Below are positions 11,513 to 32,205 of a DNA stretch of 64,000 nt, in pieces. A program made the position numbers and the translations under genes. Each line of letters starts with the position of its first letter. Positions within the stretch are counted from its first letter, which is position 1. Origin of the DNA: Prevotella sp. UBA5387 (GTDB lineage Bacteria > Bacteroidota > Bacteroidia > Bacteroidales > Bacteroidaceae); NCBI GenBank assembly GCA_002407775.1, contig DHOP01000009.1, positions 16,457 through 80,456 on the forward strand. Direction: 5' to 3'. The notes beneath the pieces are model-generated. The model worked only from the letters and a program-made list of their open reading frames with translations, did no database searches and was not told where the DNA came from.

Positions 11513-11591
11513 TGCTCAAGGCATTTGGTCATAGGCCATATTATCTTGGAGTGAATATCGCCTAATGGTTGGTATCCTTTCCGTTAATTTG

Positions 11592-11599
11592 CAAAGATA
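11592..11599 (-). promoter_or_regulatory. Candidate -7 box (TATCTTTG) for the regulator gene
   Basis: The minus strand reads TATCTTTG, 80 nt upstream of ATG 11512. Confidence 0.35.
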
Positions 11600-11623
11600 A
11601 TAAAATTGTTGATTTCCGAGAGT

Positions 11624-11730
11624 ATAATTCAATTTGTTTTACGTTGTGATTCAATTTGATTCACGTTGTGTTTCAATTTGATTCATGCGGTGATTCAATT
11701 TGTTTTACTGAGTGATTCAATTTGAATCAC
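11624..11730 (+). repeat. Array A of the 22-bp-periodic near-palindrome repeat family (5 units)
   Basis: Units start at 11624, 11646, 11668, 11690 and 11712. Sequences: ATAATTCAATTTGTTTTAC, GTGATTCAATTTGATTCAC, GTGTTTCAATTTGATTCAT, GTGATTCAATTTGTTTTAC, GTGATTCAATTTGAATCAC. Spacers are 3 nt. Confidence 0.95.
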
Positions 11731-11936
11731 GATCCGACTACTATGTAACCATGCCTACAATGGTTAATTTTGGGCAGCTTTCTTACTGCTTTTGCGTTTC
11801 TAAAGTCCGTTTTTGTCGAATAAGGTTTAGATTATTCTCATTCAAAAATATGATAAATCATTTATAATCAGCTAATTGATATTTTGATTAACTTTGATTT
11901 ATCATTGATAGACTTGTACTCTCCCATCCTTTGATC

Positions 11937-11944
11937 TATCTTTG
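11937..11944 (+). promoter_or_regulatory. Candidate -7 box (TATCTTTG) for the starch-PUL susC
   Basis: TATCTTTG lies 38 nt upstream of ATG 11982 and inside the TTG-extended ORF-track version, which supports the 11982 start. Confidence 0.45.
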
Positions 11945-11981
11945 CAACATTATACTACTAATATTAACTATAGAAAAAAGT

Positions 11982-14975: not shown

Positions 14976-14987
14976 TGACAAACAACG

Positions 14988-16592
14988 ATGATTATGAAAT
15001 CTATATATAGCAAGATAGCAGCGGTAGTACTCCTCAGCATTACTGGACTGACCGCCTGCACCAATGACCTGAACCAGGAGCCGCTGGCCGACACTACTTT
15101 GACGGCTGAGAAGGCATGGATTCAGCCTGGTTCATACGACAAATACATGTCCAAGCTTTACAGTGCACTGGCCATTTCGGGCAACGATGGCCCAGGGTCA
15201 GGCGACATTGTGGGTTCAGACCAGGGCGAAGCAACGCTGATTCGCTCTTATTTCAACCTTCAGGAGCTACCCACTGACGAAGCAGCCATTGCATGGGGCG
15301 ACGATGGTCTGAATAGCTTGACATTCAACTCATGGAGTGCCACCAACCGATTCATCATGCTGTCTTATGACCGTTGCGAACTTATCAATGCCTGGGTCAA
15401 TGAGTTTCTCATCCAGACGACTGACGAAAAGCTCAGTGCTCGCGGTGCCAGCACTGCTTTGATCGACTCTGTGAAGCTTATGCGCAACGAGGCTCGCGTC
15501 ATCCGTGCTTTCTCTTACAGCCTGCTTATGGACCTTTATGCCAATGTTCCTTTTGTGGATGAAAACACTGGCGTAGGTGCGTTCTTGCCCGAGCAGAAAG
15601 GCCGTGACTTCCTGTTCCCTTACATAGAAAGCGAACTTAAGGCTGCCATTGCCAATCTTCCAGAGAAGAGCGACCGTCATTACGGCATGGCAAACAAGTT
15701 CGTAGCCGATATGATTTTGGCCAATCTCTACATGAATGCAGAGGTTTACGGACAAGGAAACCGCTACAACGATGCCATCGCTTGCCTTAATGACATTATC
15801 GACAACGGTGGTTATACGTTGGAACAAAAGTATGGTTACAACTTCAATGCTGACAATTACAAGTCCAAGGAAATTATCTTCCCAATCATTTACGATAGCC
15901 AATATGCACAGAGCTATGGTGGAACGATGTACCTCATGGCAGGAACGTTTGGCACAGACATGGCTCCTTCCGACAACTATGGTCTCAATGGGTCTTGGTC
16001 AGGACTACGTGTGAAGGAAGATATTGTGAACCTTTTCAGCGAGGGAGATCAGCGCGCGATGTTCTTTACAGGTGAGGGCACCGATAAACCACGCACCAAA
16101 TCCATCTCTAACACATCCGATTACTATCAGGGTTATCCTTCTATCAAGTATCAAAACCTAAACCGCGACGGCTCGGCTGCAGTCAACAAGAACTTCTCTG
16201 ACGTGGACTTCCCATTCTACAGATTGGCCGATGCATATTTGCTTTACATAGAGGCTGTAAAGCGTGGAGGCAATGGAGACGCTGCGAAGGCTGTACGCTT
16301 GTGGAATGCTTTGCAACTAAGGGCATTTGGAAATAACAACCATGATATCGCAAGTTTGTCAGACATTACACTCAATGATATCCTTGACGAACGTGGTCGT
16401 GAACTCTATTGGGAGGCTCATCGCAGAACAGACCTTATCCGGTTCAATAACTTTACCGACAACAAGAACTGGTCTTGGAAGGGTGGATCACAAGCTGGCG
16501 TGCAGAAGATAGACGACAAATACAAGATCTATCCATTGCCATCGACCGACCTTTCGGCCAATCCAAACCTCAAGCAGAACCCCGGTTACTAA
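14988..16592 (+). CDS. susD: SusD-family glycan-binding lipoprotein
   Basis: 534 aa. Lipoprotein signal ...SITGLTAC. SusD-like motifs (RVIRAFSYSLLMDLYANVPF, FPFYRLADAYLLYIEA). Confidence 0.85.
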   Translation: MIMKSIYSKIAAVVLLSITGLTACTNDLNQEPLADTTLTAEKAWIQPGSYDKYMSKLYSALAISGNDGPGSGDIVGSDQGEATLIRSYFNLQELPTDEAAIAWGDDGLNSLTFNSWSATNRFIMLSYDRCELINAWVNEFLIQTTDEKLSARGASTALIDSVKLMRNEARVIRAFSYSLLMDLYANVPFVDENTGVGAFLPEQKGRDFLFPYIESELKAAIANLPEKSDRHYGMANKFVADMILANLYMNAEVYGQGNRYNDAIACLNDIIDNGGYTLEQKYGYNFNADNYKSKEIIFPIIYDSQYAQSYGGTMYLMAGTFGTDMAPSDNYGLNGSWSGLRVKEDIVNLFSEGDQRAMFFTGEGTDKPRTKSISNTSDYYQGYPSIKYQNLNRDGSAAVNKNFSDVDFPFYRLADAYLLYIEAVKRGGNGDAAKAVRLWNALQLRAFGNNNHDIASLSDITLNDILDERGRELYWEAHRRTDLIRFNNFTDNKNWSWKGGSQAGVQKIDDKYKIYPLPSTDLSANPNLKQNPGY

Positions 16593-16612
16593 TCCATAAT
16601 AATGATTTCGCA

Positions 16613-18055
16613 ATGAAAAAGATAAAATATTTAGCCCTCATGATGTTGGGATTGCTTTCCCTTGCATCATGTAGCGATGACGATTCTCCCATACTTGACT
16701 TCAGTCGAACAGAGCTTCCTAAGCTCAATTCACTGGGACAGAACGTGATGTATGTCTATAACAATCAGAACACTAAGTACGTTTTCACTTGGAGTCAGGC
16801 CCGTTTCTTCTTCAAAGATGCCTATGCATCAACCTCAATTGGTGGTTATGAGAAAGGTGGAGTTACCTATGAGTTGCAATGCGACACTGTAGGCAACAAC
16901 TTCGCCACCCCTATTAGCGCCGGCAGTGTGACTTCCTTGAACTCCCTGACCATTGATGCGGCTGAGTTGGCAAAGACTATAGAAGCTACCTATCCTCAAC
17001 CAGACAGCATCGTTCCGCTAGAGTTCAGAATCAAAGCACAATTTGGTTCGACCGATACCACGATCATCTATAGTTCAAATGTGCTGCCCGTGACGCTCAA
17101 TTACGCCGGCAAACCTGCTGCTCCAGCGCCTGATCATGCACCTTACAAAGTATATGTGGACGACCAAACTGGGTGGGATGCTACCACGCTTTATATTTGG
17201 AATGATGGTGGTAAGGTGAAGGACGGATGGCCAGGTGTAGCTCCTACAAGCACAGAGAAGATAGGAAATACAACCTATAAGGTATGGGAGCTCGACGAAG
17301 CCTATCAGAAAGCCAAAGGCATGCACTTCATTTTCAACAACAATGGAGGCGGAACACAAATCGATGATGTACTTAGTGGCTTTGAATTCACAGGCAATGT
17401 TTACCTTCGTCTCAATGCCGACAAGACGTTCCAGCAACTTCCTGACCCATTCGCAAAGACCATTAGGCTCTATGTGAAGAATACTACGGGCTGGTCAGAC
17501 ACTTATCTCTACATGTGGAGCAACGGTGGAGATGTCGCCGACCCATGGCCAGGACTAAGGCTCGATGGTGGCAACAAGGTGACGCTCAATGGCGTAGAGT
17601 ACACCGAATATTACTTACCACAGGCTTATGTGGGCAAGACGGGTGCCAACTTCATCTTCAATAACAACGCCGGCTCACAGTTTGACGGTCCTCAGAACGT
17701 GAATCTCGATCACGATCTCGGTGTTACACTGAGTAGCACAGGTGCCAACGAGGAGAATTTACCTGCACGTATCTTTGTTCTTGACGGCAGTGGTTGGGGC
17801 GACCTTAGTCTGTACGCATGGAATGAGACAGGTAATATGGTCGGATGGCCAGGCGTACACTACAGCTTCACTGAGAATATCAACGGTTTAGAATGGAAAG
17901 TCTTTGTTATGCCAAGTGACTATGCCGCCAATGCAGTGAACTATATCTTCAACAACAATGGAGGTGGAAGTCAGTTTGATGCCATGAGTGGTTACACCAT
18001 CAAGGGTGAGACTTTTGTCAGCATCACATCGAAATCGTACACAGTAATTGAATAA
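16613..18055 (+). CDS. SusE/SusF-like surface lipoprotein with three CBM26-like starch-binding repeats
   Basis: Start set at ATG 16613 (MKKIKYLALMMLGLLSLASC lipobox); the ORF-track start overlaps susD. Three repeats of (Y/F)V.D.(T/S)GW....LY.W...G....WPG, each followed by FIFNNNGGG(T/S)Q.D. The same module heads the downstream amylase. Confidence 0.7.
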   Translation: MKKIKYLALMMLGLLSLASCSDDDSPILDFSRTELPKLNSLGQNVMYVYNNQNTKYVFTWSQARFFFKDAYASTSIGGYEKGGVTYELQCDTVGNNFATPISAGSVTSLNSLTIDAAELAKTIEATYPQPDSIVPLEFRIKAQFGSTDTTIIYSSNVLPVTLNYAGKPAAPAPDHAPYKVYVDDQTGWDATTLYIWNDGGKVKDGWPGVAPTSTEKIGNTTYKVWELDEAYQKAKGMHFIFNNNGGGTQIDDVLSGFEFTGNVYLRLNADKTFQQLPDPFAKTIRLYVKNTTGWSDTYLYMWSNGGDVADPWPGLRLDGGNKVTLNGVEYTEYYLPQAYVGKTGANFIFNNNAGSQFDGPQNVNLDHDLGVTLSSTGANEENLPARIFVLDGSGWGDLSLYAWNETGNMVGWPGVHYSFTENINGLEWKVFVMPSDYAANAVNYIFNNNGGGSQFDAMSGYTIKGETFVSITSKSYTVIE

Positions 18056-18093
18056 AAAACTTGCACCAAAAACATATAGATGTATTGTGTTTT

Positions 18094-18549
18094 ATGAGAA
18101 ATCTAATGTTAGTTCTACTTATGCAAGCTTGGTCTGTCTGCGCTTCGGCGCAGGCAGATCTTATTCACCTTGCCGCAGACAAGTTCACCAATGCCCAAGC
18201 GGGCAATGTGTTGACTGTCGAACCGACGTTCTTCCGTAATGCCGTACAGCAGTTGGAAATGAATGGCAACATACTTGCCACTTCTAAAACCACAGCTGGA
18301 AGCATTGTCTACACACTTACACAAGTTGATATTGACAAGTTAAAGGCTACCGGGATGGACATGAAGCTTACTAATGGCACTATCATTTATATATTCCTCA
18401 ATGATGCCACCACAGGGATATCCAACCCCATTAGTGCCGACATATCAGCACCCCCTGGACTTATATACTCATTAGACGGCCGTCGCCTCAACCAGGCTCC
18501 AAGCCAAGGAATATACATCACGAACGGCAAGAAACATCTTGCCCACTAA
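18094..18549 (+). CDS. Small secreted protein with a T9SS C-terminal sorting-domain-like tail (function unknown)
   Basis: Start at ATG 18094 (MRNLMLVLLMQAWSVCASAQ signal). C-terminus ...LIYSLDGRRLNQAPSQGIYITNGKKHLAH resembles a type A T9SS CTD. Confidence 0.5.
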   Translation: MRNLMLVLLMQAWSVCASAQADLIHLAADKFTNAQAGNVLTVEPTFFRNAVQQLEMNGNILATSKTTAGSIVYTLTQVDIDKLKATGMDMKLTNGTIIYIFLNDATTGISNPISADISAPPGLIYSLDGRRLNQAPSQGIYITNGKKHLAH

Positions 18550-18551
18550 TC

Positions 18552-20366
18552 ATGATTATGAACAGCATGAAAAAAACGATATTATCACTTCTCGCTTTAA
18601 TCATGGCCTGCACTCTACAGGCTCAAAGCACACAGACTCTTTATAAGGCTACTCCGAGAGCTAACTCAAAGATTTACGTACAGGACAACACTGGATGGAA
18701 TGACCTTTCGCTTTATGCATGGATTGGATCTGGCGAGAATGGAAACATGAAGCCCTGGCCAGGAATCCATTATACTGGTGTTACAACCATTGCAGGGAAC
18801 CCATATAAGGTACTCGAAATGACCTCAAGCTATGAGGGACAACCACTCAACTGGATATTCAACAACAACAATGGGGGAAAGCAATTTGATGCAATGAAAA
18901 ACTTCACGCTCACTGACGACCTCTATATGCGTATCACTGCCACAGGCTACGAGTTGCTTGCCGACCCTGATCCGATACCCGCCGTTGCGCCTGTTTACGG
19001 CACTTCTACAGCTTACGACAACGTTGGAACCAAGCCACTGAGCGATAACCATCGTGTCATCTACCAGATCAACCTGTACGACTTCACCGCCGAAGGTACC
19101 TTTGCAGCTGCCCAAGCACGTCTCGATGAGCTGCAAAAGCTTGGCATAGACATAGTATGGCTGATGCCTATCTTCCCCAGAAGCAATGTCAACAAGTGGG
19201 GCACGCTTGGCTCTCCATATGCACCCAAGAGCTATTACAAGACCAATCCTGACCATGGTACGATGGAAGACTTCAAGGCTTTCGTTATTGCAGCACATCA
19301 GCGGGGCATGAAAGTGTGGCTCGATTGGGTTCCCAACCATACCGCCATGGACGCAGACTGGATAACAGAGCACCCAGAATACTACTACAAAGAGAATGGC
19401 AACTTTTACCATCCCAGTAGTGGTTCGATCTTATACGGAGATGTTTATCAGCTCGATATGCGCGACACCAACCCCGCTACACAGCAGGCTATGACAGATG
19501 CCATGTGCTTTTGGGTGGACAACACTGACGTAGACGGCTTCCGTTGCGACTTCATTTCGAGCCCTTTTATACCCACAAGCTTTTGGCTAAATGTGATTCC
19601 AGAGCTGCGCAAGCATAAGCCCAGCGTGGAAGTAATGGCTGAAGCGGATCTATCTGGTTCTGTACCAAGGCTGCTTCCAGCCGATTGGGACTTCGATTAT
19701 GCCTGGGGTTTCGAGGAGAACTTGGAGCAAGCAGCCAAGCTTTCGACCGGCGAGGGCATCACGGTTAAGAGTTATCTTGCAAGTCTTTGGAACAACACGG
19801 ACTATGGCAATGGCATAGACCGCATGGTTTACCTTGACAATCACGACCGGAATGCCGATCATGGCACAGTGAAGACGCGCTTCGGAAATAAGCTCGGAGC
19901 TTATTACACGTTGCAATTCACTGCTTACGGCATGCCGCTCATCTACAATGGAGACGAGACTGGTTACGATAAGGTCATGCCTATCGTGGAGATATTACCC
20001 ATTGACTGGACTTATGCCGATCCACAAATCAAGAACACTGTCTCTACCCTTGTGGCTCTGAAGCACACTGTTCCTGCTTTTGCCAATGGCAATGTAAGCG
20101 AGCGCGGAAGCATCAGATACCTGAGTACGGACAACGGCAATGTACTTGCTTATGAGCGTAGCAACGGTGATAGCCGTGCTTTGGTTATCCTTAACTTCGG
20201 TAGTCAGAGTGCAACGGTAGCAGTGAATGGCGTGTATGCAGGTAACTATACGCAGCTATTAAATAGCGAGACCATCTCCCAAGGCGCATCTCAACGTACT
20301 GCGACTCTTAGCGAGAGTACTCGTTTCTCCATTCCTGCCTATGGCTATCATGTTTATGTGAAGTGA
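18552..20366 (+). CDS. GH13 alpha-amylase with N-terminal CBM26-like module (SusG-like)
   Basis: Signal peptide. N-terminal KIYVQDNTGWNDLSLYAW...WPG...WIFNNNNGGKQFD. GH13 conserved regions: LDWVPNHT, DGFRCDFISS, EVMAEAD, VYLDNHDRN. Confidence 0.9.
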   Translation: MIMNSMKKTILSLLALIMACTLQAQSTQTLYKATPRANSKIYVQDNTGWNDLSLYAWIGSGENGNMKPWPGIHYTGVTTIAGNPYKVLEMTSSYEGQPLNWIFNNNNGGKQFDAMKNFTLTDDLYMRITATGYELLADPDPIPAVAPVYGTSTAYDNVGTKPLSDNHRVIYQINLYDFTAEGTFAAAQARLDELQKLGIDIVWLMPIFPRSNVNKWGTLGSPYAPKSYYKTNPDHGTMEDFKAFVIAAHQRGMKVWLDWVPNHTAMDADWITEHPEYYYKENGNFYHPSSGSILYGDVYQLDMRDTNPATQQAMTDAMCFWVDNTDVDGFRCDFISSPFIPTSFWLNVIPELRKHKPSVEVMAEADLSGSVPRLLPADWDFDYAWGFEENLEQAAKLSTGEGITVKSYLASLWNNTDYGNGIDRMVYLDNHDRNADHGTVKTRFGNKLGAYYTLQFTAYGMPLIYNGDETGYDKVMPIVEILPIDWTYADPQIKNTVSTLVALKHTVPAFANGNVSERGSIRYLSTDNGNVLAYERSNGDSRALVILNFGSQSATVAVNGVYAGNYTQLLNSETISQGASQRTATLSESTRFSIPAYGYHVYVK

Positions 20367-20463: not shown

Positions 20464-20570
20464 TTCAGTATAATTGATTCATATCGTGATTCAATTTGAT
20501 TTATGGTGTGATTCAATTTGATTCACTCTCTGATTCAATTTGATTCACTCTCTGATTCAATTTGATTCAC
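20464..20570 (+). repeat. Array B of the repeat family (1 degenerate + 4 full units)
   Basis: Degenerate unit at 20464 (TTCAGTATAATTGATTCAT). Full units start at 20486, 20508, 20530 and 20552: GTGATTCAATTTGATTTAT, GTGATTCAATTTGATTCAC, CTGATTCAATTTGATTCAC, CTGATTCAATTTGATTCAC. Exact 22-bp period. Confidence 0.95.
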
Positions 20571-20839: not shown

Positions 20840-22186
20840 TTAAAGAAAGTGATTGATTATGATTTGACCATTATGTATCCAAAGCGTAATAGTTATTGCA
20901 AAGACAACACTTCTCCAAGGATAAACCATTTTGGAGGGTAATGACTTAAACAAATAGCCAAAAGCAACAGGGATAACAAACATCCAACCAGACGCCATGA
21001 TGTATACCTCGTTTATTGCAAAGCCCAAAATCAGGTTAAGCATGATGTCGATGCCTAGCCAACAAAGCAACATTTGCAGAAGTTTTTGCCTTCGTCCAAC
21101 CCATATTCCGGCAAAAAAGATGAGCGTCACAACAGCCACTAAAGCATAAGGAAACCAGGACCGATAATGAACAATCATTGGGCGATCTTTCAATGTATCT
21201 TTTAACGCGTAGTCTTTGTGGAGCATCATTGACTCGCCAAGGAAATTTTCGATGATGGTTGGAATGCGTGGTGTAGCAAAATCCATCATATAAAGTAGTC
21301 CACTTGGGCGGAAATGCTTTGGACCGTTTTGTGCAATCCATTTAGCTTGGGCGTCGATCTGCTGTTGGGTTAAACCATTTTTCTTTTCGTTAGCTTTGGC
21401 AATGGTTTCATATTTCTTCTTCTGAGGCACCTCATAGACTTGATATTGATATTGTCTAATGGCCATAAGAGCTATCAAAGGCAAAACTACACCTAAAAGA
21501 AAGAACTTTGGTCTGAAAGCTTTTCGGCCATTACAGAACCCACCGGCAACGATGGTTTTCAAACCGTTTGACGTGGCAATTCCAGACGTAAAGAAGAGCA
21601 GAATCATTGATTGCCATGATTTCAGCATCCGTCCTTGTTGCATACACTTGCCCACAATGTAGGCTGTCATCGTAAGCAGCATCATAGAAATGGCAAAATG
21701 CTCAGGCACCATTGTCGCAAGTAGTACATGACCAAAGGAAAAGAGCAAGGCAACCAATAGCAGTGCATCAAGCCGACGCAGACCTAAAAGTTCGTGTAGT
21801 ATGCGATATACGAAGATAACAGTATAGACTGCGGAAAAGATAATGATTATACCTACAAAGATAACGGCAAAATTTACATCTATTACCTTCATCAACCAAC
21901 TGTTCAACAGATACATCGGATACAGGAAAGTGTAGTATAGCGGATGCCGAATTGACCTGAAGATGATACGACCTTCTGAAATGACATACCACGAAGTGCA
22001 GTCGTATCCAGATACGTTATATCGAGTAGAGAATATTGTCCAAAATCCCCCTGATGCGCCATCTGTGTATGCCTTCCAATGTACGCCAACAAGAAGGGCG
22101 TTGAGCGCAAAAAAAACTAATAAGGCGACGAGTGCCAATCCCCGTTCCCCACGCTTGATGCAAAATATCTTTAGCGGATTCGTCAT
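20840..22186 (-). CDS. Polytopic inner-membrane protein, paralog 2 of a GT-C-like pair (possibly DUF6080-type)
   Basis: 448 aa with many hydrophobic helices. Clearly paralogous to 22223-23662: shared VP(D/E)HF..SM, IENFLGES..LH.DY.LKD, GIW.GRR, LGF.INE.YIM, GYLFK. Family label is from memory only. Confidence 0.6.
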   Translation of the reverse strand: MTNPLKIFCIKRGERGLALVALLVFFALNALLVGVHWKAYTDGASGGFWTIFSTRYNVSGYDCTSWYVISEGRIIFRSIRHPLYYTFLYPMYLLNSWLMKVIDVNFAVIFVGIIIIFSAVYTVIFVYRILHELLGLRRLDALLLVALLFSFGHVLLATMVPEHFAISMMLLTMTAYIVGKCMQQGRMLKSWQSMILLFFTSGIATSNGLKTIVAGGFCNGRKAFRPKFFLLGVVLPLIALMAIRQYQYQVYEVPQKKKYETIAKANEKKNGLTQQQIDAQAKWIAQNGPKHFRPSGLLYMMDFATPRIPTIIENFLGESMMLHKDYALKDTLKDRPMIVHYRSWFPYALVAVVTLIFFAGIWVGRRQKLLQMLLCWLGIDIMLNLILGFAINEVYIMASGWMFVIPVAFGYLFKSLPSKMVYPWRSVVFAITITLWIHNGQIIINHFL

Positions 22187-22222
22187 TTTGAATAACTGAA
22201 GCTAAGTGATGAGTATTAATTA

Positions 22223-23662
22223 TTAATTGAGTAAATATCCGACAAACAAAGAGCCATTCCATGCCATGAGGAATAGAACTATCGTTAGTACGGTAAGCCT
22301 TAATGGGATGTGAAGTTTACCATTTGAAACCTTCTTGAACAAGTAACCCATAGCAATTGGAAAAACAAAGAGCCAGTGGGCAGACATAATATATATCTCG
22401 TTGATTCCAAAACCAAGTACAACATGAATAAGCATATCAAAGGCGAGGAAGCTCAATGCCAACCATAGAAAGCGGCTGCGACGACCACACCATATACCGA
22501 CAAGGAAAAGAACCACAAGCAGCGCCTCTATAATATAGTTGATGGCAAACCGATATTTCACAATGACAGGACGACTAACGAGGTTGTCCTTCAGTAGGTA
22601 ATCGGAATGGAGCTGAATGGATTCGCCTAAAAGATTCTCTACAATCGATGGCCATCGTGCAGTGGTGACATCAGTCCACTGAGAGAATTCGCCATGAGCA
22701 ATAGGCTTACCAATATTCTTACGCCAGGGTTTCTTGTTATTTCGGGCTTGGCGTGCAGCCACCTGTTTGTTGAGAACTCGTTGTATTCCTGCTTGGATAG
22801 CTGCCGAATCCTTTAGTCTTGTAGTGTCACGGAAAGCCTTTGCAACACGTGCTTGTCTAATGCTATCGACCTCAGCGCGCTTTTGTTGGCGGGCTGCATA
22901 CTTTGGCTTTTCATAGATTTTCCATTCCCATCTGGCCGTCCCCCAAATTATTGCACACGGTAACAATACTACCAAAAGTATGTTTACAGGATGCCAGAAA
23001 CGCTTGCCATTGACAAAAAGATTCGCCAAGAGCACCTTTATGCCGTTGTTTAGCGAGATACCTGCAGTGATAAAGAATAAAAGAATAGTTTGCCAACGGG
23101 AGAGAGAATTCTTGGATTGAATCTTTCGTCCTGCCACATAGAGCGTGAGAACAAGCATGAACATTGACAGAATGAAGTGGTCGGGAACGCATGACGAAAG
23201 CATAATGAGGGCAAAACTATAGGTCAATGCGCCAAGCAACCACGAGTCTATCCATGGTAAATGGATAATATCGCGGAAGATACGACATAGGAAAATAAAC
23301 GCATAGAAGGCACAAAAGACCAAGACAAAGGCCACAATAAACTGTACAAAGTTATACCCTGTCAGAGCCATTAGACCTCTGTTGAGCTGTGCTGGAAGCC
23401 ACCAGAAGAAGGCAAGAAGCGGATGCCGATAGATATTATAATAAGCGTCCCAATCAGATACTACGGCATAAGTTAGTGGATCAAAGCCTGATATATGGAA
23501 TGTGCGTGTGAAAAGGCGCTTATAATTGTCGCTCGAATTGATAAACTGCTGTATGTACTGCGCAATGACCATGGCATTGAGAGCTACGATATAGAGCATT
23601 GCTACAAGTGCTGCCCACCGCTCTTCATGTCTGATTTTGAAGATTCCTATTATTCTTTTCAT
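22223..23662 (-). CDS. Polytopic inner-membrane protein, paralog 1 of a GT-C-like pair (possibly DUF6080-type)
   Basis: 479 aa. First loop HISGFDPLTY...RHPLL; multiple TM helices. Basic ~70-aa insert (KPKYAARQQKRAEVDSIRQARVAKAF...). Operonic with GtrA and a UbiA-family phosphoribosyltransferase. Confidence 0.6.
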   Translation of the reverse strand: MKRIIGIFKIRHEERWAALVAMLYIVALNAMVIAQYIQQFINSSDNYKRLFTRTFHISGFDPLTYAVVSDWDAYYNIYRHPLLAFFWWLPAQLNRGLMALTGYNFVQFIVAFVLVFCAFYAFIFLCRIFRDIIHLPWIDSWLLGALTYSFALIMLSSCVPDHFILSMFMLVLTLYVAGRKIQSKNSLSRWQTILLFFITAGISLNNGIKVLLANLFVNGKRFWHPVNILLVVLLPCAIIWGTARWEWKIYEKPKYAARQQKRAEVDSIRQARVAKAFRDTTRLKDSAAIQAGIQRVLNKQVAARQARNNKKPWRKNIGKPIAHGEFSQWTDVTTARWPSIVENLLGESIQLHSDYLLKDNLVSRPVIVKYRFAINYIIEALLVVLFLVGIWCGRRSRFLWLALSFLAFDMLIHVVLGFGINEIYIMSAHWLFVFPIAMGYLFKKVSNGKLHIPLRLTVLTIVLFLMAWNGSLFVGYLLN

Positions 23663-23665
23663 CGT

Positions 23666-24070
23666 TTACCGCTTCAAAAAGAACCTCACCAAGAGGAAAT
23701 TAATAGGCACACAGATGGCAAACATAGGTATTGGAGCAAGTGGTTTGGACACGCCTACCTTGATGAAAAGCCATAGCAGAAGCATCTGTAGGCAATAGTT
23801 GATGACGTGGCTCAATGCAAATCCTGCCCCCCGACGGGCGTTAGGCCTGACCCGAAAGGTAAAATGGGTGCTAGCAAAGAAGTTGAACAGGAAACTCAGG
23901 GCGTAGCCAACGGTGTTGGCAATCCCCGCATTGACCCAACGAAGCATAAGCAGATAGATGCCGTATTGTAGCAAAGTGGCTACCACTCCTACAATTCCGA
24001 AGCGAACAACCTCACCTAATCGTTGCATCTTCTCGCTATCTAAATGGCTTATAATGGGCTTCATCTGCAT
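23666..24070 (-). CDS. GtrA-family small membrane protein (lipid-linked sugar translocation-associated)
   Basis: 134 aa with four hydrophobic segments. RFGIVGVVATLLQYGIYLLML...NTVGYALSFLFNFFASTHFTFR is typical GtrA-like. The start may instead be the internal ATG at 24028, which would remove the 35-nt overlap with the HAD gene. Confidence 0.75.
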   Translation of the reverse strand: MQMKPIISHLDSEKMQRLGEVVRFGIVGVVATLLQYGIYLLMLRWVNAGIANTVGYALSFLFNFFASTHFTFRVRPNARRGAGFALSHVINYCLQMLLLWLFIKVGVSKPLAPIPMFAICVPINFLLVRFFLKR

Positions 24071-24641
24071 AACTTAACATCTCTTTGTCGCCACGGCTAT
24101 CGCCGAATGCTGCAATATAATAGGTAGAACGAGGTTGAGGAAGTAAGGCTTTGATACGTCGAACCTTCTCTGCTCCAAAACAGTTGGGGGTAAGAAAGCG
24201 CCCCGTTACAACACCTTCTTTTGTCTCTATCTGTGTGCCTACAACGTGAGGAGAACCTTGTGGCAAGGTCTCGAAGAACGGGCAGACCCAGTTATCGATG
24301 CTAGCGCTCACTACAAAAACATGCGCACCGTCCTCCAATGCATGTTGCATTTCTGCTAATCCAAGCGGACGCAACAATCGTTCACGATGGTCTTGAGCAA
24401 AGGAGTGGCATAGTTGGTCAAACTTCTCAATATCAATACCCTTGAAGAAGTGAGCAAATACTTTTTGCTTTGCCTTGCCATTGGAGTATAAATGCAGCTT
24501 CATCATTACTAGCAGAGGGGAATAAAGCAACAGTCCTAGCCAGAAACGACATGCTCCCTTGGCATAGATGATAAAGGCCAAGAGTGTATCACGTGTGGTC
24601 AACGTACCATCGAAGTCAAAAAGATATACTTTATTGCCCAT
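24036..24641 (-). CDS. HAD-superfamily (subfamily IB-like) phosphatase
   Basis: 201 aa. Motif I FDFDGTLT; later VVSAS and GDSRGDKEML (motifs II-IV). Confidence 0.75.
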   Translation of the reverse strand: MGNKVYLFDFDGTLTTRDTLLAFIIYAKGACRFWLGLLLYSPLLVMMKLHLYSNGKAKQKVFAHFFKGIDIEKFDQLCHSFAQDHRERLLRPLGLAEMQHALEDGAHVFVVSASIDNWVCPFFETLPQGSPHVVGTQIETKEGVVTGRFLTPNCFGAEKVRRIKALLPQPRSTYYIAAFGDSRGDKEMLSYADEAHYKPFR

Positions 24642-24658
24642 AACTTCTAGCTTTTAAC

Positions 24659-25549
24659 TCACTTAGCATAGATAATCAGCAAGAATGAAATGAGCCATGC
24701 CAAACCGTCCAACTGTATGAAACGGTCGCGCAAAATGACCTTGGTCGGATTACCACTCTTCTTTTCTACCACTGCAATTTGGATATAACGTAACAATCCC
24801 ACAAGCACAAAGACGCTCGTAAGGTAGAGGTAATCGTTATGAAATTGAGCGATTACTTCAGGGCTGACGGTATACATGATGTAACAAACAAGTGTTACCG
24901 CTGCCGTGATGGTGATTGCCTGATTGATGAATGTGAGGTTATAATGAATGGTATTTCTACGTGGAGCCTCGCCTGTTGCCTCCATTCGAAGCACGTCATC
25001 ACGTCTTTTGGCAAAGCTCATGAATAGCGTTAGGAGGAACGTCATGAGCACAATCCACTTACTTAGCATAATATCAGTGGCTTGGCCACCGGCAAACAAT
25101 CTCAGTACAAACCCGAAAGCAACGATGCAAACGTCAATAATGGCATATTGCTTGAGTCGCGCACAATAGGCAAGATTTAGCAACCAATAGAACAGAACGA
25201 TGCCGGCGACATGCAGCATAGCCGTCTTCCCTACCCAATAAAGCAATCCTACAGATAACAATGATAGTACAAACATCAATCCCATAAGTCCGTAAGCTTG
25301 CGCTACAGACACCGCACCTGAAGCTATCGGGCGGCTTTTCTTTTCAGGATGACGCCTGTCATCAGCTAAGTCATAGATATCATTGAAGCAATATACGCTT
25401 GATGCGGCAAAACAAAAAGCTAAGAAAGTGATGATGCCGGCTGTTAACGCTTTGCCGTTGAGCAGTTCGCCTCCAAAGACAATTGGACCAAAAACGAAAA
25501 GATTCTTGATCCATTGTGCCGGTCTTATGAGTTTTATGAGATGTTTCAT
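24659..25549 (-). CDS. UbiA-family polyprenyl-phosphate 5-phosphoribosyltransferase (decaprenyl-phosphate phosphoribosyltransferase-like)
   Basis: 296 aa, about 8 TM helices. RPAQWIKNLFVF and NDIYDLADDRRHPEKKSRPIASG match the signature of the Rv3806c-type DPPR synthase branch of the UbiA family (ND..D...D..HP.K..RPIA.G). Confidence 0.75.
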   Translation of the reverse strand: MKHLIKLIRPAQWIKNLFVFGPIVFGGELLNGKALTAGIITFLAFCFAASSVYCFNDIYDLADDRRHPEKKSRPIASGAVSVAQAYGLMGLMFVLSLLSVGLLYWVGKTAMLHVAGIVLFYWLLNLAYCARLKQYAIIDVCIVAFGFVLRLFAGGQATDIMLSKWIVLMTFLLTLFMSFAKRRDDVLRMEATGEAPRRNTIHYNLTFINQAITITAAVTLVCYIMYTVSPEVIAQFHNDYLYLTSVFVLVGLLRYIQIAVVEKKSGNPTKVILRDRFIQLDGLAWLISFLLIIYAK

Positions 25550-26574
25550 TTAGGCAAACACTTAGATAATTGGGCTGAAATCCAATCTGCGGCTTTGCTC
25601 AACAACCATGCCAAAGGAACGGAAATGATGGCCATTACCACAAACTTGGACCAATAACCCCAATGCTTTGGAAGATATAGAAGTACGAATTGGACATGGA
25701 TAAGATAGATTTCCAAACTGACTGTTCCCAAAAAACGGAAGCACTGTTTCAGTCTATTCGCAGTACGACGGATAAGGAAATTAAGGAGCAAAATTGCCGA
25801 AATTGTCAGTGGAATATACACCAAGCGCTCAATGAAAAGTGGGAATTGGCCATGCTTTACTTGTTCAAGATAAAGGCTCAAAGTCAATCCCGCTAAGAAA
25901 ACGAGCAGTATCAGCCAAATACTCATGCCGTCCATGCGTCTACCTTGACGCACCATTTCCCCCATGTTAATGCCGATAAAGAAAATGGGAACACGACTCC
26001 AAAAGATTTCCAAATGTCCAACGGCATCATTGATAGGTGCCACCCACTGAACGGCAACACACCACAAGATCATCAAGATGGGTATCCAACGGTAGGCCGG
26101 ATGGCGCTTAATCAACTCCATATAGGCAGGAGCAAAGATATAAAGCATCATTGTGGCAGGGACATACCAAAACGTCAACTCACCATTAAGCCAAAAATCC
26201 CAGTTAATCAGGATGTCGCCAGCCAAGTCGATCCATGCCAAGGCATCTCCGCCACGAAATCGTGGAATATAATAAAGGCAGGAGACAATGAGCCATGCCG
26301 GATAGATTCGTAGGTAACGACGACTGAAAAAATGCTTCATACTTGGCATCTTCATCCACGAAAACCACAAACCGATGCCACTAAGGAACAAGAATATGTC
26401 AACGCCAATATTGCCCAGACGCATTAATCCAAAGAATGTGTCGTAGCGAGGTAAGCCGATATGGAAGAACATAATAAACACCATAGCCAGTCCCATCAGC
26501 TCTCCGCGATAGCGGCTGATGTCACCCAGATCAATTTCGGGAATGGTTCGGAGTTTTTGTTGTTGCTCTGCCAT
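25546..26574 (-). CDS. Acyltransferase family 3 membrane protein (O-acyl/acetyl transferase)
   Basis: Multi-TM protein with an acyltransferase-3-like N-terminus (...RGELMGLAMVFIMFFH...). Start set at ATG 26574 (MAEQQQ) to avoid a 59-nt overlap. Its TGA overlaps the ATG of the next gene (ATGA at 25546-25549). Confidence 0.65.
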   Translation of the reverse strand: MAEQQQKLRTIPEIDLGDISRYRGELMGLAMVFIMFFHIGLPRYDTFFGLMRLGNIGVDIFLFLSGIGLWFSWMKMPSMKHFFSRRYLRIYPAWLIVSCLYYIPRFRGGDALAWIDLAGDILINWDFWLNGELTFWYVPATMMLYIFAPAYMELIKRHPAYRWIPILMILWCVAVQWVAPINDAVGHLEIFWSRVPIFFIGINMGEMVRQGRRMDGMSIWLILLVFLAGLTLSLYLEQVKHGQFPLFIERLVYIPLTISAILLLNFLIRRTANRLKQCFRFLGTVSLEIYLIHVQFVLLYLPKHWGYWSKFVVMAIISVPLAWLLSKAADWISAQLSKCLPK

Positions 26575-26584
26575 TGTGATATTT

Positions 26585-27781
26585 CTACTTTTTGTCACTG
26601 GTATTAGTTGCTTCTGATATATCAACAATCTTGTTGGGCTCAAGCTTAGGGTTAGGAATATGCTTCATTAACTCGTTGATTACCCAAGCAAAAAAAATGG
26701 AAGAGGCAATGTAAAGGAGCAATCCAGCATACATATTTCCATCTCGCGATAAAGGAATAAATACCTTGCGAGTAACGGGATGAATAACAAACAATGCGGC
26801 AGAGAGCCGACCCATCCACACCAAGAAATCATAAATGGAAGTCATGAATGAACCTTTGATGTAGCGGAAAAGCTTTATGAAGTATATGCATGCAAGACAA
26901 ACCACAACCGGAACAAATGCCCATGCGTAAAAGTTGTTACTCATACTGACTACCAAAAACGTCGTAAACACCATTGACATCAATGTACCGAGTCCTCCGA
27001 TTCGTAATAAAATGATTCGTTCTCCGTAACGAGCAAAGAGCAATCCAAAGCCAAAGGGTAGCATTCCACCCATGAAATTGTAGCGATAACGATTGAGCAC
27101 CTCGCCCTCAGGCGCCATGAACAGTTGTAAGACGACACAAATCACCATCAGCCCCACGGTCCAGCCCCAGTGTCGCCGGTAAAGGAAGAGTCGATAAACA
27201 ATATATAATTGAAGCATCAACCCGAAGAACCAATAGGGCCCAGGCCATATATTGCGGTCGGGTTCAGGCAGAACATTATTGAACATTCCAAGCTGGCCGA
27301 TAACTTGCATCACCGTATAATGCCAGCGTCCTGCAGTTATCTGATCGACGAAAGTGAAGCATACGAAGCCCACAATCATCATCTTGAAGAGCTTGAGGAA
27401 ATGGTATCGGATAAAGGATAGAATTCCAACACCACGAGAAAAAGCCCCCTTACTACCCTTCTCCTTGGGAGATGGAACGGCCATTCCATATTTCCGCTCC
27501 AACCCAAAGGCACTCAGGAAAAGGAAGATGGGCACACCATAATGTCCAAAGTATGACAGCAAATGCATTGGCAATAGTCCATCGGGAGCTGCCAGAACTT
27601 GAGAAAACCAGTCCACATTGTGTTGGAAAAACTGATATTCGTTTTCCTTGACGATGGGGCCAAGCCAGTGACAGTAGTTATGAAGAACGATACCAAGTAT
27701 CGCCAAACCCCTCAGGGCATTGCATTCTGTGCGTGTCAGTAAGTCGTTATTGAGATTATGTTCCATGGAAGTGTCATTCAT
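26585..27781 (-). CDS. Acyltransferase family 3 membrane protein
   Basis: 398 aa. NALRGLAILGIVLHNY... and about 10 hydrophobic helices, as in acyltransferase-3 (OafA/NolL-like) proteins. Confidence 0.65.
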   Translation of the reverse strand: MNDTSMEHNLNNDLLTRTECNALRGLAILGIVLHNYCHWLGPIVKENEYQFFQHNVDWFSQVLAAPDGLLPMHLLSYFGHYGVPIFLFLSAFGLERKYGMAVPSPKEKGSKGAFSRGVGILSFIRYHFLKLFKMMIVGFVCFTFVDQITAGRWHYTVMQVIGQLGMFNNVLPEPDRNIWPGPYWFFGLMLQLYIVYRLFLYRRHWGWTVGLMVICVVLQLFMAPEGEVLNRYRYNFMGGMLPFGFGLLFARYGERIILLRIGGLGTLMSMVFTTFLVVSMSNNFYAWAFVPVVVCLACIYFIKLFRYIKGSFMTSIYDFLVWMGRLSAALFVIHPVTRKVFIPLSRDGNMYAGLLLYIASSIFFAWVINELMKHIPNPKLEPNKIVDISEATNTSDKK

Positions 27782-29637
27782 TGTTTTTTCATTGCTGCCT
27801 CACGAAGCTTATCATAGTCCACTGAGTTCTTCAGTATACGTGGCCTTAGCTCGTCGTAGTCGGGAGAAAGGATATTGAACTTTGCACGATAGTCTTTTGT
27901 ATGGATGCCGGCCAACCATACCATGAGGTGAGGCAAAGCGTCCGTCATAAATCGTTTGTCTTTTGCATCCTTGATCATTTTAAATACCTCAGGGTGCTTC
28001 ACTGCGTAACTATGAGAACAGTAGATCCAGAAAGGTACCTCGAATTCATAGTGCGCCAACGGCCAGTCAACCGCCGAACTATGGTTACGTCCGATAAAGT
28101 GTCGGCCCGGTTCGTAGATTTCCTCGCCATGGTCGGGCATATAAATGACAATGGCGTTTTCATTCTCAAAGCGCTGAACAATCTGATCGACAATGGAGTC
28201 ATTATATAAAACAGCATTGTCGTAATCGGCAATCATCTGTCTAGCCCTTGGCCCCAACTCGGGTCGAGCTTCCTTGTAGTCGTCTGCCTTGAACACCTGA
28301 CGGTCACTCGGATAACGCGTACGATAACTTACATGCTGGCCGATGAGGTGGAAGATAATCAGGTTATGCCCTTTGAGGTTGATAGTGCCTTTCTTTAGGA
28401 AGTTATCATAGTCATTCAGCAGACCGTCATCATAGCGATGCAGTTCTGTATTGCGTGTGTCAAACTGAGCCTTATTGAGTGTGGGATCATTAAGAAAGAA
28501 CCCTCCTGAAAAATCGTATACAGCCTCCTGTGCTTTCGGAAGGAATTGGTTAGTCATGAAGGTAACTTTATATCCTGCTTTGCGGAACAACTCAGGAAAT
28601 AGCGGATAGTCACACCACTCCCCCTTATCTCCTATCACATACATCGAAAGAAAGAGCTTGAAAACGAAGCTTGTGAGATTCCACCCACTCACCACATCAG
28701 TGAAAGACGTAAGCAATCCTTTGTCCTCGAGAAGCAACTGATGAGGAGCAGTCTTCAAACGATACCCATAAAGTTGTGAGTGAGCCTTGCTATAGCTTTC
28801 TCCTATGATAAACACGATGTTGGGTGAACGATAGGAGCAAGAATCCACTTTTGCTCGTTCGGCGGCTATTATACATCTATCAATCTGTTTGGCAGCCAAC
28901 ATATTGCTATAAACTGAGAAAGCTAGACGATATATGGGCAGGTAAAACTCAGCATGGTCCTTCTCGGTAAGCAAATGCTCCACGTTACCAATTGTGGGTG
29001 CTGTCATCATGCGCGTCATCTGACGCTTGTTTTGCCAGCTATCAATGATACCAAAAACAAGTAGCACAAGCACCAACATGCCACCCAAGACATCTATTCT
29101 TTGTTGTCGCAACCTAACGGCAAAGCGTCTTAATTTACCCCGAATGAGCAAGCCTTGACGGGGGTCTAGAAAGCGCAGAATAGTGTGTCTTGACTTCCAT
29201 GCAAGATGCAAGAGCATGAGCAGGAATATCCAGAAAAGGGGTGAAAACAAAACATCGGAAGAAAGATAGGTTTGCAAAAATTCTCCCGCCTCACGGCTGT
29301 CCGTCTCGCTAACGAGCAACAGCATTGTGGGATTTAGCGTTGAACCAAACTTCCAGAAGCAGTATACATCCACTATGGCCACGGCATATAGCACGGCATA
29401 CAACAACATCCGAATCCACGAACGAATGTGACGAGGAAAGATGGCTAATACAACACAAACAAAATAGATATCGACAAAAAGCTCCAGAAACAGATTGTCA
29501 TAGAGCTTCGCACTCCTTGTTTCGGGAAGTGTGAGCACAGCACAAAGCACCCCAAGGATGTACATCGTCACGAAGAATGTACGGTTCTTCGCGATAGGCA
29601 TTAGCAACCAACGTGCTATACGTCTCAATCGCTTCAT
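27778..29637 (-). CDS. Membrane-anchored alkaline-phosphatase-superfamily transferase (EptA/LtaS/OpgB-like; phosphoethanolamine or phosphoglycerol transferase-like)
   Basis: 619 aa. N-terminal TM bundle, then a sulfatase-like domain (NIVFIIGESYSKAHSQLYGY, IFHLIGQH, VIYMPDHGEE). Substrate cannot be determined from the sequence. Confidence 0.6.
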   Translation of the reverse strand: MKRLRRIARWLLMPIAKNRTFFVTMYILGVLCAVLTLPETRSAKLYDNLFLELFVDIYFVCVVLAIFPRHIRSWIRMLLYAVLYAVAIVDVYCFWKFGSTLNPTMLLLVSETDSREAGEFLQTYLSSDVLFSPLFWIFLLMLLHLAWKSRHTILRFLDPRQGLLIRGKLRRFAVRLRQQRIDVLGGMLVLVLLVFGIIDSWQNKRQMTRMMTAPTIGNVEHLLTEKDHAEFYLPIYRLAFSVYSNMLAAKQIDRCIIAAERAKVDSCSYRSPNIVFIIGESYSKAHSQLYGYRLKTAPHQLLLEDKGLLTSFTDVVSGWNLTSFVFKLFLSMYVIGDKGEWCDYPLFPELFRKAGYKVTFMTNQFLPKAQEAVYDFSGGFFLNDPTLNKAQFDTRNTELHRYDDGLLNDYDNFLKKGTINLKGHNLIIFHLIGQHVSYRTRYPSDRQVFKADDYKEARPELGPRARQMIADYDNAVLYNDSIVDQIVQRFENENAIVIYMPDHGEEIYEPGRHFIGRNHSSAVDWPLAHYEFEVPFWIYCSHSYAVKHPEVFKMIKDAKDKRFMTDALPHLMVWLAGIHTKDYRAKFNILSPDYDELRPRILKNSVDYDKLREAAMKKQ

Positions 29638-29660: not shown

Positions 29661-29668
29661 CAAAAGTA
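29661..29668 (-). promoter_or_regulatory. Candidate -7 box (TACTTTTG) for the 8-gene envelope-decoration operon
   Basis: The minus strand reads TACTTTTG, 24 nt upstream of ATG 29637. Downstream genes are separated by 36 nt or less, or overlap. Confidence 0.45.
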
Positions 29669-32197: not shown

Positions 32198-32205
32198 TAA
32201 ATTTG
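32198..32205 (+). promoter_or_regulatory. Candidate -7 box (TAAATTTG) for tsaB
   Basis: TAAATTTG lies 41 nt upstream of ATG 32246, divergent from the yicC box. Confidence 0.4.

Follow-up and report, generated by a model that had tools for sequence, protein, structure and literature searches.

A Prevotellaceae operon predicted to transfer a polyprenyl-linked pentofuranose at the periplasmic face of the cell envelope

Introduction

Citrobacter youngae O1/O2 makes pentofuranose side chains by a three-component system in which ORF15 (PPPRS-PRP, where PPPRS denotes a polyprenyl-phosphate 5-phosphoribosyltransferase), the MATE flippase ORF14, and the GT-C enzyme ORF12 of family GT136 act together (Kelly et al., PNAS 2024, PMC11127046). 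The HAD(PRP)-PPPRS fusion makes polyprenyl-phosphate-ribofuranose (polyprenyl-P-Ribf) from phosphoribosyl pyrophosphate (PRPP), the flippase exports it, and the GT136 enzyme adds alpha-Ribf after polymerisation (PMC11127046). Ribf is the default sugar, with epimerases as optional add-ons that give xylofuranose (Xylf) or arabinofuranose (Araf); one GT-C can take either Ribf or Xylf donors, and ORF12 ends in a beta-rich carbohydrate-binding module (CBM), which lies after the last transmembrane (TM) helix and is dispensable for catalysis (Kelly et al., PMC11127046). The same authors already list uncharacterised candidate systems in other bacteria and cite an example from Caudoviricetes; Bacteroidota are not named in the main text or the supplementary text of their paper (PMC11127046). 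Here, an eight-gene operon from a member of that phylum is considered. It occupies positions 20840-29637 on the minus strand of a 64-kb stretch of DNA from Prevotella sp. UBA5387 (the window).

An initial interpretation of this stretch, made from its letters without database searches (the sequence-only reading), had compared the operon with the mycobacterial arabinan donor pathway and had been aware of no characterised version in Bacteroidota; likewise, no characterised PPPRS pathway from this phylum was found in the literature searched. Given the evidence of sequence, predicted fold, synteny, and gene fusions, together with the C. youngae precedent, we consider it likely that the operon is the Prevotellaceae version of extracytoplasmic pentofuranose glycosylation, joined to two other activities that would decorate a glycan at the periplasmic face. 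In what follows, the genes are numbered 1 to 8 in the direction of transcription (Table 1).

Evidence for a probable lipid-linked pentofuranose pathway

The assignment begins with gene 4, a UbiA-family member in which the sequence-only reading had recognised the motif NDIYDLADDRRHPEKKSRPIASG as the signature of an Rv3806c-type enzyme. The motif is present, and the protein falls in the clade of decaprenyl-phosphate phosphoribosyltransferase (DPPRS) rather than in the quinone or haem clades. It scores 225.8 bits against the NCBIfam equivalog NF008978, above the cut-off of 207, and 220-226 bits against the DPPRS equivalog models, whereas the UbiA, MenA-like, CyoE, and ChlG models give only 22-31 bits. 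Its best solved relative is Rv3806c itself (PDB 8j8j; E 2.2e-41 over residues 4-288), whereas 4-hydroxybenzoate octaprenyltransferase is matched at no better than E 0.006. Furthermore, N56, D57, D60, and D64, which form an N-D-x-x-D-x-x-x-D loop, correspond to N247, D248, D251, and D255 of ORF15, residues that are needed for the activity of that enzyme (Kelly et al., PMC11127046). The enzyme family of gene 4 is thus established, and a phosphoribosyltransferase activity is inferred from it.

Genes 5 and 6 were assigned as the sequence-only reading had proposed. Gene 5, which carries the expected FDFDGT motif, is a HAD-IB phosphatase (Pfam PF12710, E 8e-33; TIGR01488, 68 bits, above the cut-off of 45) with a weak similarity to PgpC, and it shares 30% identity with the HAD-IB protein encoded 3' of the DPPRS gene on a Lactococcus plasmid. 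A PgpC-like membrane anchor was considered and dropped, since no strong hydrophobic segment was found in the protein by hydropathy. Gene 6 is a small membrane protein of the GtrA family; we know of no GtrA protein for which a flippase role has been proven.

Genes 7 and 8, which belong to the family DUF6080, are paralogues (34% identical; BLASTP E 3e-86). Searches of the PDB by sequence, made with a single sequence and with a 74-sequence profile, returned nothing meaningful for DUF6080; only the comparison of folds is informative. AlphaFold2 models built from a 74-sequence alignment (gene 7, pLDDT 92.2 and pTM 0.89; gene 8, pLDDT 86.0 and pTM 0.89) were compared with the PDB by Foldseek. For gene 7, all 24 of the 24 best matches are GT-C enzymes, namely STT3/PglB/AglB, Pmt, ALG9, EmbA/B, and AftA (probability 0.75-1.0, TMq 0.29-0.46), and for gene 8 the top matches are STT3, ALG9, chains of GPI-transamidase subunits, EmbB, AftA/AftB, PimE, and ArnT. 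For the two paralogues together, the top matches are almost exclusively GT-C, with probabilities of 0.96-1.0, whereas unrelated polytopic proteins, such as major facilitator superfamily transporters and G-protein-coupled receptors, reach a probability of at most 0.2 and a TM-score of about 0.1-0.16. The GT-C-like nature that the sequence-only reading had suspected in these two polytopic proteins is therefore borne out at the level of predicted fold.

GT-C enzymes carry a catalytic acid in the loop after TM1. The corresponding long loop of DUF6080 contains an invariant aspartate and an R-H-P triplet (D61 and R79-H80-P81 in gene 7; D62 and R80-H81-P82 in gene 8), and other invariant polar residues are kept in the family as P-D-H-F and N-G-x-K. 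The N-terminus of DUF6080 is basic and hydropathy agrees with a periplasmic location of the TM1 loop, which we infer to face that compartment. The two models consist almost entirely of helices, the last of which is a TM helix, and a C-terminal beta-rich CBM was not seen in them. DUF6080 is predicted to be a GT-C glycosyltransferase and probably a ribofuranosyltransferase.

Natural gene fusions tie these proteins to one another. HAD-DUF6080 fusions occur in four cases (P0136, P0153, P0158, and P0217) and GtrA-DUF6080 fusions in two (P0063 and P0152). The HAD and GtrA domains of these fusions are orthologues of genes 5 and 6 (49% and 59% identical, respectively), and the fusions lie in the same operon context, which argues that HAD, GtrA, and DUF6080 serve a single pathway.

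Table 1. Genes of the operon and the candidate promoter box, in positions of the window
Feature	Position	Strand	Assignment	Remarks
Gene 1	27778..29637	-	EptC/CptA-like phosphoethanolamine transferase, 619 aa	Polytopic N-terminal domain and alkaline-phosphatase-superfamily domain
Gene 2	26585..27781	-	AT3-family membrane acyltransferase, 398 aa (or 393 aa from ATG 27766)	Without SGNH domain
Gene 3	25546..26643	-	Second AT3-family acyltransferase	Open reading frame (ORF) of 365 aa from TTG; likely product 342 aa from ATG 26574
Gene 4	24659..25549	-	Polyprenyl-phosphate 5-phosphoribosyltransferase (PPPRS, Rv3806c type), 296 aa	NF008978
Gene 5	24036..24641	-	HAD-IB phosphatase, proposed polyprenyl-P-ribose-5-phosphate 5'-phosphatase, 201 aa	PF12710
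Gene 6	23666..24070	-	GtrA-family small membrane protein, proposed lipid-linked-sugar flippase, 134 aa	Pfam GtrA_DPMS_TM, E 2.2e-21
Gene 7	22223..23662	-	DUF6080, proposed periplasmic pentofuranosyltransferase, 479 aa	Pfam DUF6080, E 8e-188
Gene 8	20840..22186	-	Second DUF6080 paralogue, 448 aa	Pfam DUF6080, E 1.9e-156
Candidate -7 promoter box	29661..29668	-	TAnnTTTG (TACTTTTG)	24 nt 5' of first ATG

The upstream genes and the layout of the operon

The first three genes of the operon encode an EptC-like transferase and two acyltransferases, as the sequence-only reading had stated in slightly different terms. Gene 1 matches Pfam Sulfatase (E 2.9e-29), and its catalytic domain aligns with that of Escherichia coli EptC (PDB 5zzu; E 3.4e-31), including the GES and DHGEE metal-binding motifs; its hydrophobic segments cover residues 19-202. 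The best NCBIfam family is the CptA subfamily, at 178.5 bits under a cut-off of 404, and the EptA_B_N domain scores 19.4 against a cut-off of 22.3. Genes 2 and 3 both match Pfam Acyl_transf_3 (E 1.8e-21 and 3.1e-27, respectively), and gene 3 has in addition a weak similarity to MdoC/OpgC (E 4e-4).

All eight ORFs were confirmed on the minus strand, in the same direction and closely packed, as had been described. ATGA overlaps are read at 27778-27781 (genes 1/2) and 25546-25549 (genes 3/4), the UbiA/HAD junction is a 17-nt gap, HAD and GtrA overlap by 35 nt, and gaps of 3 and 36 nt, the latter the largest in the operon, separate GtrA from the first DUF6080 gene and this gene from the second. 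On identical metagenome contigs the AT3 genes are called with later starts, yielding products of 393 and 342 aa and gaps of about 10 nt, and the ATGA at 27778-27781 consequently represents one of two possible starts. According to hydropathy, the HAD protein is the sole soluble product, the other seven being polytopic membrane proteins.

The claim that the operon lies behind one TAnnTTTG box stands in part. The TACTTTTG box is present and is the single match in the 88-nt gap between nadD and gene 1, but seven additional minus-strand matches occur inside the operon. The 66 matches in the whole window exceed the 45.2 +/- 6.4 of shuffled sequences, and not one of 100 shuffles had as many; this excess fits a role for the motif as a Bacteroidota promoter element. 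Given how common the motif is, the box is weak evidence for an operon promoter. Matches also lie just 5' of other ORF starts in the window, for example at 11889-11896 and 32198-32205. Scans for sigma-70 promoters and for terminators were uninformative.

Conservation among Prevotellaceae

DUF6080 is a small family, with 746 clusters at 50% identity (E <=1e-3) among 1.84 billion proteins. Almost no names are given for the members of these clusters, and the single named member is Prevotella sp.; the literature searched contained no paper on DUF6080. When one genome per species was scanned, 250 DUF6080 loci were obtained, and the best 80 of these, from which the neighbourhood counts were taken, all belong to Prevotella, Segatella, or Hallella, save for evidently mislabelled bins. 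The family is thus apparently restricted to Prevotellaceae. The bins in question (L026-L028, L031, L033, L038, L048, L074, L080, and L082) carry typical Prevotellaceae DUF6080 loci under the titles Escherichia coli, Lachnospiraceae, Oscillospiraceae, Eggerthellaceae, Paratractidigestivibacter, and Clostridia, and they are probably contaminated or mislabelled.

Synteny was counted in the 54 Prevotellaceae species loci for which 7 kb or more of upstream sequence is available. A complete EptC-AT3-AT3-UbiA-HAD-GtrA module lies on the same strand directly upstream of DUF6080 in 38 of the 54, and 23 of these 38 modules are preceded by both gmk and nadD. The recurrence of a six-gene module in the same order shows that the grouping is not due to chance, and the operon organisation proposed from one sequence is in this way substantiated. 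A partial module, owing to insertions, is found in 6/54 loci. The same gene order is also present in Prevotella sp. oral taxon 299. Among complete genomes, those of S. copri HDD04 (NZ_CP152484.1) and Prevotella sp. JUN01a (NZ_CP050883.1) are examples with the operon.

Several loci carry further genes at this position. In those of Segatella copri, HAD and GtrA are separated by an additional AT3 gene, and the two DUF6080 copies by a GT14 "Branch" gene encoded on the other strand. In some strains or species, AAA-ATPase genes (DUF4143-type) are inserted at the DUF6080 locus. The coordinates of the insertions are L067:8499-9479 and 11444-12319, L058:6714-8135, and L008:8790-9989. The DUF6080 locus thus looks like a hot spot of strain-level variation.

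A model for the pathway

In the model favoured here, gene 4 would make polyprenyl-P-ribose-5-P from PRPP, and the HAD-IB phosphatase encoded by gene 5 would remove the 5'-phosphate to give polyprenyl-P-ribofuranose, a role suggested by the gene fusions, the synteny, and the precedent of ORF15. The GtrA protein (gene 6) would then move the lipid-linked sugar to the periplasmic leaflet, where the DUF6080 proteins (genes 7 and 8), which have a predicted GT-C fold, would attach the pentofuranose at the acceptor sites. Their likely catalytic base is the invariant Asp of the first periplasmic loop. Finally, gene 1 would add phosphoethanolamine from phosphatidylethanolamine and genes 2 and 3 would O-acylate. 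Because gene order is conserved across both halves of the operon, genes 1-3 probably act on the same acceptor as genes 4-8.

The identity of the sugar follows by default. The absence of a DprE1/DprE2 pair, noted in the sequence-only reading, was upheld: tblastn with Chondrinema litorale queries found no DprE1/E2-like match in the window or in 88 related Prevotellaceae loci, and none was found among the records of a plasmid collection that are attributed to Prevotella (one replicon only). Since no epimerase is linked to the operon, the default prediction is that the donor sugar stays D-ribofuranose.

Alternative explanations

A number of results weigh against the model. The TM-scores of the DUF6080 models are modest (0.41-0.47), and their best matches are oligosaccharyltransferases, not monosaccharide transferases. 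Similarity between gene 5 and the fused PRP-type HAD of a Vibrio ORF15-like protein was not detected (BLAST E 0.14), nor did gene 5 match NCBIfam PRK08238, the model for HAD-UbiA fusions; homology of gene 5 to the ORF15-type HAD is thus unsupported by either comparison. In 10/54 loci, DUF6080 is present with no module nearby; Segatella buccae, S. salivae, and S. maculosa are species in which DUF6080 occurs without it. In Segatella oulorum (L046:16801-21434) and Prevotella sp. HJM029 (L050:16471-21391), the EptC-AT3-AT3-HAD-GtrA genes are kept with no UbiA gene in the locus; the module in these two cases is inverted and lies 5 kb from DUF6080, with only about 88 nt between the second AT3 gene and HAD. 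The cassette is self-contained within the window, as had been claimed, but this does not hold for most relatives, which adjoin a Wzx/GT2/LicD cluster: within 10 kb of DUF6080, the best 80 of the 250 loci have a Wzx-like flippase in 52 cases, LicD in 48, and a Leloir GT2 in 28. In addition, an unlinked epimerase may be encoded elsewhere in a genome of which the 64-kb window was covered. Published structures also count against the model. The rough-type lipopolysaccharide (LPS) of S. copri DSM 18205 is Hex6-Kdo-P-PEtN on lipid A, with phosphoethanolamine (PEtN) on O-4 of Kdo and without pentose (PMC12643348), and the O-glycan structure of Prevotella intermedia is likewise without pentose; these are the two Prevotellaceae glycoconjugates found in the literature, from strains that may or may not carry the operon.

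How far do these results favour another explanation? That gene 4 is an aromatic, quinone, or haem prenyltransferase, in a cluster unrelated to glycans, could be argued from UbiA superfamily membership alone; the scores of the DPPRS models and of Rv3806c are so far above those of the prenyltransferases that such a clustering is ruled out, and this explanation is effectively refuted. A different possibility accepts the pathway but not the sugar, the lipid-linked ribose being epimerised to Araf or Xylf by enzymes encoded elsewhere (DprE1/E2-like or an ORF13-like SDR). A plasmid of Chondrinema litorale does have DprE1- and DprE2-like genes directly 3' of UbiA, a single GT-C accepts Ribf or Xylf with epimerases as add-ons (Kelly et al., PMC11127046), and our view of the genome is limited to 64 kb. 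However, where epimerases occur in characterised or candidate systems, their genes are linked to the rest, and the searches of the window, the 88 Prevotellaceae loci, and the Prevotella plasmid records (one replicon) found no DprE1/E2-like gene, so that epimerisation by such distant genes is unlikely.

It is quite unlikely, in turn, that DUF6080 is a GT-C ligase or oligosaccharyltransferase for the undecaprenyl-diphosphate-linked oligosaccharides of the neighbouring Wzx/GT2/LicD locus, with the product of the UbiA, HAD, and GtrA proteins serving another purpose. This would account for the best structural matches (STT3/PglB/AglB) and for the position of DUF6080, which in most relatives has Wzx-like, GT2, and LicD genes as neighbours and in some cases no UbiA module (as in S. 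buccae L009) or, in S. oulorum, no UbiA in the locus; moreover, Bacteroidota O-glycosylation still awaits the identification of its oligosaccharyltransferase and its ligase. However, the fusions of DUF6080 to HAD and to GtrA argue for a pathway based on a polyprenyl-monophosphate sugar, the operon genes offer no other GT-C candidate, and a small family (746 clusters) whose named members are all Prevotellaceae contrasts with an O-glycosylation that is phylum-wide. Finally, the two halves of the operon could be independent, the EptC-like and AT3 proteins modifying one molecule (for example, adding PEtN to LPS Kdo) while genes 4-8 glycosylate another. Such a division would agree with the PEtN on Kdo O-4 and lack of pentose in S. 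copri LPS, with the retention of the upstream half in the S. oulorum and HJM029 loci although UbiA is missing, and with the S. copri strains that have insertions between HAD and GtrA. We nevertheless regard it as fairly unlikely, given that the seven-gene order is intact in 38/54 species with very short junctions, and that De Simone Carone et al. assign PEtN addition to two other eptA/eptB homologues with a full EptA_B_N domain.

The candidate acceptor and the surrounding genes

If the lipid-linked pentofuranose pathway is the correct explanation, an acceptor is required. LPS, which the sequence-only reading had named among the possible targets, is not favoured, as the single solved Segatella LPS is without pentose (PMC12643348); the published structures of S. 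copri and P. intermedia led to the rejection of both LPS and O-glycan in this role. Our best guess is that the acceptor is not the LPS core but a Wzx-dependent, LicD-decorated surface glycopolymer, encoded by the Wzx/GT2/LicD locus that adjoins the operon in most relatives.

The cluster downstream of DUF6080 in most relatives comprises a protein of 341-342 aa, a GT2, a Wzx-like flippase, LicD, and a variable head-group module (for example, L067:13929-19633, L009:12779-18092, and L089:10872-17527). One type of head-group module consists of an IspD-like cytidylyltransferase and a short-chain dehydrogenase/reductase (SDR), of the CDP-alditol type. The other consists of a cytidylyltransferase-PEP-mutase fusion and an OCD-family enzyme, of the phosphonate type, with the phosphoenolpyruvate (PEP) mutase at 424.8 bits against a cut-off of 319.55. 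The recurrent protein of 341-342 aa, which is encoded between DUF6080 and the GT2/Wzx genes (L089:10872-11900 and L008:13461-14486, both on the minus strand; also L013, L018, L036, and L041), has no Pfam or NCBIfam match. The downstream GT2 of the relatives was considered as a GtrB-like polyprenyl-P-hexose synthase that might feed one of the DUF6080 paralogues; this was rejected, as it matches soluble Leloir GT2 enzymes and not GtrB or DPMS.

In the 64-kb window, no Wzx-like, LicD, Leloir GT2, or head-group genes were found. A polysaccharide utilisation locus of the starch-utilisation type (11931-20366, plus strand) sits where most relatives have the Wzx/GT2/LicD glycan locus; it encodes a SusC-like TonB receptor, a SusD-like protein, a SusE/CBM26-like protein, a small protein, and a GH13 alpha-amylase (Pfam marks from an identical contig). 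Between the convergent genes for the alpha-amylase and the last DUF6080 protein lies a 22-bp tandem repeat (20474-20570; consensus TTGATTCACTCTCTGATTCAAT, 4.4 copies, 85% matches). Elsewhere in the window, two plus-strand ORFs (38239-39219 and 39358-40401; 326 and 347 aa) without Pfam match lie among murA, rimM, dxr, rseP, and fabI-like genes.

Implications

The type of pathway is already known from C. youngae (PMC11127046). What is new is DUF6080 as its GT-C partner, the stand-alone arrangement of HAD-IB and GtrA, the evidence from fusions, the coupling to EptC-like and AT3 genes, and the conservation across Prevotellaceae. The proposal gives a testable function to DUF6080 and would extend the three-component pentofuranose pathway to Bacteroidota, in an operon conserved in Prevotella, Segatella, and Hallella, major inhabitants of the gut, the mouth, and the rumen.

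A conserved operon on the one hand and a pentose-free S. copri LPS and P. intermedia O-glycan on the other point to a surface structure that was overlooked or is produced only under certain conditions. It is possible, although doubtful, that Prevotellaceae, including the abundant gut species S. copri, carry an undetected envelope glycoconjugate with alditol-phosphate or phosphonate head groups, which the adjoining Wzx/GT2/LicD locus would build and the operon would decorate in the periplasm with ribofuranose, phosphoethanolamine, and O-acyl groups. Short oligo-ribofuranosyl chains could possibly be built in this way by the one to three DUF6080 paralogues, and in that case DUF6080 would define a new GT-C (CAZy) family of ribofuranosyltransferases. 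In a bolder variant, DUF6080 may be a lineage-specific ligase or oligosaccharyltransferase of Bacteroidota O-glycosylation. An overlooked or conditional surface structure could bear on how S. copri is recognised by the immune system, adsorbed to by phages, and typed at strain level. The fusions and the varying number of paralogues provide ways to dissect acceptor specificity, and the PRPP-dependent step offers a specific, assayable entry point.

Comparison with known systems

The mycobacterial decaprenyl-P-arabinose pathway (Rv3806c, Rv3807c, DprE1/DprE2, Rv3789, Emb/Aft), to which the sequence-only reading had likened the operon, holds as a parallel insofar as no solved homologue is closer to gene 4 than Rv3806c (E 2e-41), but it is no longer the sole one, the pathway type having been shown in C. 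youngae in 2024 (PMC11127046). The two also share a GtrA-family protein, the counterpart of Rv3789, and several GT-C paralogues that use, or would use, a lipid-linked pentofuranose. However, the Prevotella window is without DprE1/DprE2, the phosphatase is of the HAD rather than the PAP2 type, and the lipid is presumably C55, not C50. Furthermore, DUF6080 has no sequence similarity to the Emb/Aft enzymes (GT53, GT85, GT87, GT89); the likeness to EmbA/B, AftA, and AftB is at the level of fold alone (TM 0.33-0.44). The GtrA/GtrB/GtrV systems of O-antigen glucosylation in Shigella and Salmonella likewise combine GtrA with a periplasmic, serotype-specific GT-C that uses a polyprenyl-monophosphate sugar, but a GtrB-type GT2 synthase was not found among the eight genes, and the donor would instead come from PRPP by way of the UbiA-family enzyme and a phosphatase.

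Decoration from a lipid donor at the periplasmic face is shared with EptC/CptA and ArnT, which modify LPS. Gene 1 aligns with the catalytic domain of EptC but falls under the CptA and EptA family cut-offs, and heptose-phosphate, the target of EptC, is not reported in the single solved Segatella core; the sequence of DUF6080, for its part, is not ArnT-like.

Two plasmid-borne clusters also resemble the operon. The Lactococcus exopolysaccharide plasmid pLLF27D (NZ_PP589792.1) carries DPPRS, HAD-IB, and GtrA as separate genes in the same order within a polysaccharide locus, in a Gram-positive host and without EptC or AT3 partners. The trio adjoins a hypothetical membrane protein of 533 aa, a candidate GT-C that was rejected as a relative of DUF6080 (hhalign probability 4.6%). 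Within Bacteroidota, a plasmid of the Cytophagia member Chondrinema litorale encodes a PPPRS 46% identical to gene 4, with linked acyltransferase and GT-C enzymes. In contrast to the Prevotella operon, it carries DprE1/E2-like genes, which predict Araf, its GT-C is of the PMT_2/GT39 type, and neither HAD nor GtrA lies beside UbiA. This cluster (UbiA-DprE1-like-DprE2-like-acyltransferase-GT39; NZ_CP111066.1, L085, 8989-14854) is flanked by further GT39/DUF2723 proteins, and by analogy it is predicted to be an arabinofuranose-type system in Bacteroidota. Of other candidate GT-C proteins considered beside DUF6080, the Vibrio and Chondrinema neighbours have no Pfam match or match PMT_2. In a phage collection, a UbiA homologue was found on a single unannotated "phage" fragment of 6.6 kb, and DUF6080 was not found.

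The closest characterised system is the three-component pentofuranose pathway of C. youngae, not the mycobacterial arabinan pathway alone. Common to both is a PPPRS of the UbiA family with the same catalytic-loop residues, PRPP-dependent in C. youngae and predicted to be so here; a HAD-superfamily phosphatase step, a small flippase, and a periplasmic GT-C would follow in the Prevotella operon as well, and the lack of an epimerase implies Ribf. The Prevotella version differs in that its candidate phosphatase is a stand-alone HAD-IB protein in which no similarity to the N-domain of an ORF15-like protein was detected, its proposed flippase is GtrA rather than MATE, and its GT-C is represented by two paralogues of the all-helical DUF6080 family without a C-terminal CBM. 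In addition, the Prevotella genes are accompanied by those of a putative PEtN transferase and two AT3 acyltransferases, and they form a conserved chromosomal operon adjoining gmk-nadD instead of being part of an O-antigen cluster.

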